This document shows, one piece after another, positions 26,391 through 27,605 of a stretch of DNA of 27,605 nucleotides (position 1 is the first letter of the stretch; each line of letters begins with the position of its first letter). A program made the position numbers and the translations under genes. This DNA is from a virus (Duplodnaviria > Heunggongvirae > Uroviricota > Caudoviricetes), in IMG/VR virus record IMGVR_UViG_2534681674_000034, positions 1 to 27,605 of that record; one strand, given 5' to 3'. The notes beneath the pieces were generated by a model. It searched no databases and had not been told where the DNA came from. It was given only the letters and a program-made list of their open reading frames with translations.

Positions 26391-27605
26391 CAGGCTGCGG
26401 CATTTTGTCCGCGCCGGGCTTCGCTCACTGTTCAGGCCGGAGCCACAGACCGCCGTTGAATGGGCGGATGCCAGTTACTATCTCCCGAAAGAATCCGCAT
26501 ACCAGGAAGGGCGCTGGGAAACACTGCCCTTTCAGCGGGCCATCATGAATGCGATGGGCAGCGACTACATCCGCGAGGTGAATGTGGTGAAGTCTGCCCG
26601 TGTTGGTTATTCCAAAATGCTGCTGGGTGTTTATGCCTACTTCATAGAGCATAAGCAGCGCAACACACTTATCTGGTTGCCGACGGATGGTGATGCCGAG
26701 AACTTTATGAAAACCCACGTTGAGCCGACCATCCGCGATATTCCGTCGCTGCTGGCGCTGGCTCCGTGGTATGGCAAAAAGCACCGGGATAACACGCTCA
26801 CTATGAAGCGTTTTTCCAATGGTCGTGGCTTCTGGTGCCTGGGCGTAAAGCGGCAAAAAACTACCGTGAAAAGTCGGTGGATGTGGCGGGTTATGATGAA
26901 CTTGCTGCCTTTGATGAGGATATTGAACAGGAAGGCTCTCCGACGTTCCTGGGCGATAAGCGTATTGAAGGCTCGGTCTGGCCAAAGTCCATCCGTGGCT
27001 CCACGCCCAAAGTGAGAGGCACCTGCCAGATTGAGCGTGCAGCCAGTGAATCCCCGCATTTTATGCGTTTTCATGTTGCCTGCCCGCACTGCGGGGAGGA
27101 GCAGTATCTTAAATTTGGCGACAAAGAGACGCCGTTTGGCCTCAAATGGACGCCGGATGACCCCTCCAGCGTGTTTTATCTCTGCGAGCATAATGCCTGC
27201 GTCATCCGCCAGCAGGAGCTGGACTTTACTGATGCCCGTTATATCTGCGAAAAGACCGGGATCTGGACCCGTGATGGCATTCTCTGGTTTTCGTCATCCG
27301 GTGAAGAGATTGAACCGCCTGACAGTGTGACCTTTCACATCTGGACGGCGTACAGCCCGTTCACCACCTGGGTGCAGATTGTCAAAGACTGGATGAAGAC
27401 GAAAGGGGATACGGGAAAACGTAAAACCTTCGTGAACACCACGCTCGGTGAGACGTGGGAAGCGAAAATCGGCGAACGTCCGGATGCTGAAGTGATGGCA
27501 GAGCGGAAAGAGTATTATTCAGCGCCCGTTCCTGATCGTGTGGCTTACCTGACCGCCGGTATCGACTCCCAGCTGGACCGCTACGAAATGCGCGTATGGG
27601 GATGG
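26365..27605 (+). pseudogene. A: Terminase large subunit A (lambda-like), frameshifted near 26842-26848; continues past the window end
   Basis: Track ORF matches lambda gpA up to ...GFWCLG, then departs and stops at 27015. The lambda-like reading continues in the -1 frame to the window end. One base appears missing (GGCGTAAAG here versus recalled GGCGGTAAAG). Confidence 0.7.

Follow-up and report, generated by a model that had tools for sequence, protein, structure and literature searches.

A single missing G at codon 161 divides the terminase large subunit gene A of a lambdoid prophage in the draft genome of Escherichia coli 97.0246

The window (the whole stretch of DNA that was analysed, 27,605 nt) ends in a lambda-type gene A for the terminase large subunit (TerL), ordinary in kind and situated at the right end of a lambdoid prophage. 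As written, this gene is one G short at codon 161, and the ATPase domain of its product, gpA, is split between two reading frames. The lesion is unique to this one assembly across everything searched. The missing G may be a consensus error of the draft assembly, which appears slightly likelier than a biological mutation.

The source of the window is contig AEZJ02000032.1 (131,683 bases) of the draft assembly GCA_000194215.2 of Escherichia coli 97.0246, an STEC strain of type O5:H- (PMC4551483). The window is 100% identical to this contig, which ends 2 bases past the window, inside gpA, and the lesion is about 760 bases from the contig end. The end of the source contig is also the reason that the window breaks off at codon 414. 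The contig end corresponds to position 20250 of locus L020. It probably marks the point at which the sequence becomes common to several lambdoid prophages of this genome, which would leave the rest of gpA and the head and tail genes on other contigs.

Gene A and the position of the frame break

The features of the gene A region, all on the + strand, are as follows.

26365–27015, +: 5′ open reading frame of gene A, 216 aa with a GTG start; gpA residues 1–160 plus 56 out-of-frame residues, ending at TGA 27013–27015
26835–27605, +: the sole gpA CDS in the deposited record (gene tables), a 258-aa partial CDS with an in-frame GTG start at 26835
26845, +: lesion site, single G in place of GG, GGT (Gly161) becoming GTA (Val); from alignment and a motif scan of all fetched loci
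26847–27605, +: continuation of gene A in the −1 frame, residues K162–W414, running off the window (translation, Pfam)
26855–26860, +: run of six A's (A6), also present in the wild type, where tRNA-Lys slipping by −1 would bring translation back into the native frame

At position 26845 there is a single G, where the Stx1a phage Stx1_9793 and phage 434 have GG in direct alignment; this is the sole gap. The sequence around the lesion is ...TTCTGGTGCCTGGGC-G-TAAAGCGGCAAAAAAC, and positions 26827–26862 read ...GGC TTC TGG TGC CTG GGC GTA AAG CGG CAA AAA ACT.... The original prediction, that gene A lacks one G relative to lambda, is thus borne out by the alignments to Stx1_9793 and 434. It had also placed the end of the lambda-like gpA frame after ...GFWCLG and the stop of the annotated frame at 27015, and the translation agrees: the 5′ open reading frame reads ...GRGFWCLG, then VKRQKTT... 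(VKRQKTTVKSRW...), with its stop at TGA 27013–27015. Likewise, the lambda-like translation does continue in the −1 frame to the end of the window, as had been proposed; the frame starting at 26364 reads ...KAAKNYREKSVDVAGYDELAAF... / ...KAAKNYREKSVDVAGYDELAAFDEDIEQEG... and is stop-free to the last window base, 27605. Three details can be added, namely that the break falls at codon 161 (G161), that the out-of-frame tail is 56 residues long, and that the window stops at codon 414. None of the homologues continues the upstream frame; all carry GG, and the gene is a lambda-type A with a one-base deletion.

With the G restored, the translation gives 414 residues, of which 410/414 are identical to phage 434 gpA (annotated as the large terminase) in a gap-free alignment. 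The restored sequence also displays a single continuous match to the Pfam GpA_ATPase profile (174.3 bits, profile positions 3–237), together with the start of GpA_nuclease. The lambda-like match on both sides of the break is therefore not a chance resemblance. As written, the 5′ open reading frame gives 82.9 bits with GpA_ATPase (PF05876; profile cut-off 25.6 bits) at profile positions 3–112 of 247, and the shifted frame gives 82 bits at profile positions 117–237. The shifted frame matches GpA_nuclease (PF20454) as well, at profile positions 2–98 of 294 (98 bits), window and contig both ending at codon 414. Among solved structures, none matches gpA by sequence.

In lambda TerL, the Walker A motif is KSA-R79-VGYS and the Walker B motif is VAGYD, followed by the catalytic Glu179; every change at E179 is lethal (PMC6379665). 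The Walker A sequence KSARVGYS and the Walker B sequence VAGYD with E179 have the same residue numbers here as in lambda. All of these elements are present, but Walker A is in a different reading frame from Walker B and E179. The 5′ open reading frame includes Walker A (K76–S83), and the continuation carries Walker B (VAGYD, positions 174–178), the catalytic E179, the remaining ATPase domain and the beginning of the nuclease domain. The 216-aa product comprises the first half of the ATPase domain only and is without Walker B, Glu179 and the nuclease domain. Because the ATPase domain is interrupted between Walker A on the 5′ side and Walker B and Glu179 on the 3′ side, gene A as written would be a null allele for DNA packaging, judging from established terminase biochemistry.

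Distribution of the missing G

A 301-base stretch around the lesion is carried by 3,333 of 5,426 complete E. coli genomes. The best of these matches reach 99.7% over 302 record bases, and an exact match to the 301-base stretch with the deletion is absent from all 3,333. Up to five copies of this gene segment are found per genome in STEC. Phage records that cover the segment all span 1,242 bases, compared with 1,241 in the query. Among fetched loci with the segment, all of about 30 read GG, and these include the closest relatives. The nearest of them (L053, L045 and L050) differ from the window by 5–7 substitutions and one gap, which is this G, in 4,266 bases.

Searches of IMG/VR, JGI metagenome contigs and GTDB species representatives gave no match to the 34-mer bearing the deletion, TTCTGGTGCCTGGGCGTAAAGCGGCAAAAAACTA, whereas at least 120 IMG/VR matches were obtained for the corresponding wild-type 35-mer. 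Of the IMG/VR loci listed with the wild-type 35-mer, none exceeds 98.9% identity to the window, and so none of those listed is from this lineage.

At the protein level, the 216-aa frameshift product has no exact record. This absence carries little weight, since the deposited record annotates the 3′ piece alone and leaves the 216-aa 5′ open reading frame unannotated; the product is not on record because the deposited gene calls include only the 258-aa partial CDS. When 5.8 billion protein clusters were searched with the out-of-frame tail, this product was absent and the sole hits were three unrelated singleton frameshift products, each with a different junction. This shows that such frameshifted or fused gpA products are rare, and often artefactual.

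Of these three products, P0001 is a lambda gpA product shifted at the A6 run and comes from an obviously noisy assembly; P0002 is a gpA product that shifts after ELAA; and P0003 is a deletion fusion of Nu1 and gpA.

A closely related prophage in CP061253.1 reads GG at the lesion site, and the deletion is therefore not general in the lineage. CP061253.1 (L025, positions 2672413–2692955) is a complete chromosome with a near-identical prophage, whose alignment has 51 gap openings in 18.9 kb; many of its genes, gpA among them, have no gene call. It has the look of an unpolished long-read assembly, in which apparent pseudogenes would be unreliable.

The same prophage is found in six further assemblies (GCA_002460175.1, GCA_053798875.1, GCA_037912285.1, GCA_021568675.1, GCA_053801175.1 and GCA_011921545.1) and in the Logan assembly of SRR10723509. 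These sibling assemblies cover window positions 1–4332 and 5488–22033 and 7 kb of chromosome, about 28 kb altogether; their contigs stop by 22033, before gpA. Over this sequence the source differs from the siblings (at least six assemblies) by no indels and 0–2 substitutions, and two siblings (L028 and L030) are identical to the source over the sequence compared. This close agreement shows that the source assembly rarely makes indel errors. It also shows that the private branch of the strain is very short, so that a real private indel is a priori rare. The sibling comparison thus cuts both ways: a priori, neither an error in the consensus nor a real indel private to the strain is common.

Layout of the prophage and its known relatives

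The features outside gene A that bear on the terminase and on recE are the following.

2787–4241 and 5561–6790, −: recE fragments (profile match)
4254–5563: IS3-family element of 1,310 bases with IS629-type inverted ends, inside recE
25656–25840, +: cos, consisting of the cosN 12-nt cohesive end GGGCGGCGACCT (25656–25667) and then the cosB region (alignment to phage 434)
25845–26390, +: Nu1, terminase small subunit, intact, 181 aa (PF07471; the exact product is present in 46,895 collection blocks)

The prophage is inserted beside ttcA in STEC O5:H- strain 97.0246. The integrase gene (window 1–1236, − strand) directly adjoins ttcA (L003, positions 14293–15228), which is the Rac attachment locus. 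The left arm is of the Rac type, with int, recT, recE, kilR and ydaE. The right arm is lambda/Stx-phage-like, with a Q-like gene, three tRNAs, a TerB-domain gene, a SASA esterase gene, holin, lysozyme, Rz, cos, Nu1 and A. Since the two arms differ in this way, Rac-like on the left and lambda/Stx-phage-like on the right, the element is a mosaic.

The three tRNA genes (Met-CAT, Arg-TCG and Arg-TCT; window 19558–19809) are 3′ of the Q-like gene, as in Stx phages. After the tRNA cluster there are small open reading frames, a TerB-domain protein (20576–21007) and a 617-aa SASA esterase (21486–23339). No stx genes are present within the window, and none follows the tRNA cluster.

At the right end, cos is followed by Nu1 and then by A, whose start at 26365 falls inside the end of Nu1, an overlap as in lambda; this is the genomic context of a lambda-type terminase. 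The cosB region is near-identical to those of phage 434 and Stx1 phage, and the phage 434 record (L002) annotates cosN, R3, I1, R2 and R1. Lambda and phage 434 thus share with the window the order cos, Nu1, A and the Nu1/A overlap, and the DNA is 97.8–98.7% identical to that of lambda-type phages. Unlike these phages, the window is one G short at codon 161 and encodes 160 native residues followed by 56 unrelated ones.

The nearest DNA relatives are the Stx1a-converting phages of STEC (LC645428–LC645437) and lambda-like prophages of O157, O145 and O26 genomes, with 99.6–99.7% identity over Nu1–A and, in L053, L045 and L050, 99.8–99.9% identity over the segment from holin to gpA. Their late region has the same layout, with the tRNA cluster followed by SASA esterase, holin, lysozyme, Rz, cos, Nu1 and A; however, they all have GG and an intact 641-aa gpA. 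The prophage also differs from these relatives by having no stx in the window and by its Rac-type early region (int beside ttcA, recET, kilR).

In recE, the interruption is clean and falls between positions 402 and 407 of the 877-position NCBIfam exodeoxyribonuclease VIII profile. The inserted IS3-family element, which is IS629-like, is flanked by a 3-base target duplication, CGG, at 4251–4253 and 5564–5566. The siblings break their contigs at the same point in recE or carry the same fragments, and so the insertion is real, inherited and lineage-wide. The original prediction had cited the IS-disrupted recE as a sign of a decaying element with which a frameshift in gene A would be consistent. 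The disruption of recE itself stands, being real and inherited, but the IS is shared by the siblings and the missing G is found in one assembly alone. The histories of the two lesions thus differ, and the IS is no evidence for the frameshift.

Origin of the lesion and its consequences

The original prediction left two alternatives for the frameshift, a packaging-defective prophage or a sequencing or assembly error. Both remain, and of the two we lean, if only a little, to a consensus error in the draft. The missing G is a singleton in every collection searched and is the sole indel relative to the nearest relatives. It lies on a draft contig, about 760 bases from the end, in a gene of which STEC genomes carry several near-identical copies, and with so short a private branch a real private indel is a priori rare. 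Three observations do not fit easily with an error: the source assembly made no indel error in about 28 kb, a change of GG to G is unlike the long-homopolymer miscall typical of 454 or nanopore, and mixed reads from paralogous gpA genes cannot yield a deletion that no copy carries. In addition, STEC prophage genes often carry real inactivating lesions, of which the IS in recE is already an example here. If the lesion is an artefact, it is one more draft-assembly frameshift giving a false pseudogene call.

The other alternative, somewhat less probable but a serious contender, is that the deletion is a real and recent null mutation of A, private to strain 97.0246, which leaves the prophage unable to package its own DNA. 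The otherwise indel-free sequence over about 28 kb relative to the siblings, and a base change that is not a typical homopolymer miscall, are as expected of a real mutation, and the prophage already has a genuine, lineage-wide IS629-like insertion in recE. The effect would be severe, with Walker A on one polypeptide and Walker B and E179 on another, E179 changes being lethal in lambda (PMC6379665). Such a prophage would also retain intact cosN/cosB and Nu1, and up to five copies of the segment are present in STEC genomes. On the other side are the singleton status of the lesion in all collections, the GG in the close relative CP061253.1, the position near the end of a draft contig, and the small number of private mutations to be expected from the siblings (no indel and at most 0–2 substitutions in 28 kb).

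There is a precedent for a prophage of this kind among the defective prophages of O157 Sakai, e.g. Sp4 with its IS-disrupted nu1, which likewise combine an intact cos with a broken terminase gene (Asadulghani et al. 2009, PMC2669165). Packaging of Sp4 did occur although its terminase is not intact, and Sp14, which has a near-identical cos, most likely supplied the enzyme (PMC2669165). For Sakai, however, the lesions had been confirmed in a finished genome sequence and packaging had been assayed, whereas the lesion described here is known from draft sequence alone.

If the deletion is real, the prophage could neither cut nor package its DNA unaided and would depend on a helper terminase; such cases are known in STEC. 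A co-resident lambda-type prophage could package it in trans: cos and Nu1 are intact, and an STEC genome usually has several lambda-type terminase genes. In a more elaborate and rather improbable form of this reading, the prophage is maintained as a satellite-like element that has cos but no terminase, belongs to a “defective prophage pool” and relies on a co-resident lambda-type prophage for packaging. The 216-aa fragment, which on the basis of lambda genetics would keep the Nu1-binding region, might then interfere with the helper terminase; low-level −1 slippage on A6 could possibly supply a trace of full-length enzyme.

A lone indel near the end of a draft contig and absent from relatives is, without the reads, no basis for calling prophage decay. 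Either way the feature is ordinary and not novel, and it carries little weight beyond this strain.

Two further readings would preserve some gpA function. It is very unlikely that −1 slippage on A6, by tRNA-Lys or during transcription, overcomes the frame break and gives a partly functional gpA. The shift needed is indeed −1 and the A run is 10 nt downstream; a slip on A6 would give VKRQK in place of GKAAK at residues 161–165, with just the changes G161V, A163R and A164Q. A scan of runs and heptamers, however, shows no X XXY YYZ heptamer at 26840–26865, and A6 is present in all wild-type homologues, so it is no adaptation; no homologue uses the shifted frame. Six A's are also too few for efficient transcriptional slippage. 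The sole heptamer in the open reading frame, CCCAAAG at 27006, is 160 nt downstream, after the ATPase motifs have been lost. As a separate candidate, a programmed −1 frameshift was rejected: there is no slippery heptamer at the junction, and all homologues have one uninterrupted frame.

That the two halves are made separately, the second from GTG 26835, and reassemble into an active split terminase can hardly be credited: although the deposited annotation has a CDS from this GTG and both pieces together hold all residues but G161, the cut bisects a single ASCE ATPase fold (between positions 112 and 117 of the 247-position Pfam profile), GTG 26835 is merely the first start codon in frame, and no split gpA occurs among thousands of homologues. 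A functional split gene was rejected for this lack of precedent among homologues.

The heptamer at 27006–27012 (C CCA AAG) is in the frame of the truncated open reading frame and immediately 5′ of its stop. It is very probably a chance occurrence, since the same site in the wild-type frame is plain ACG CCC AAA GTG, encoding TPKV.
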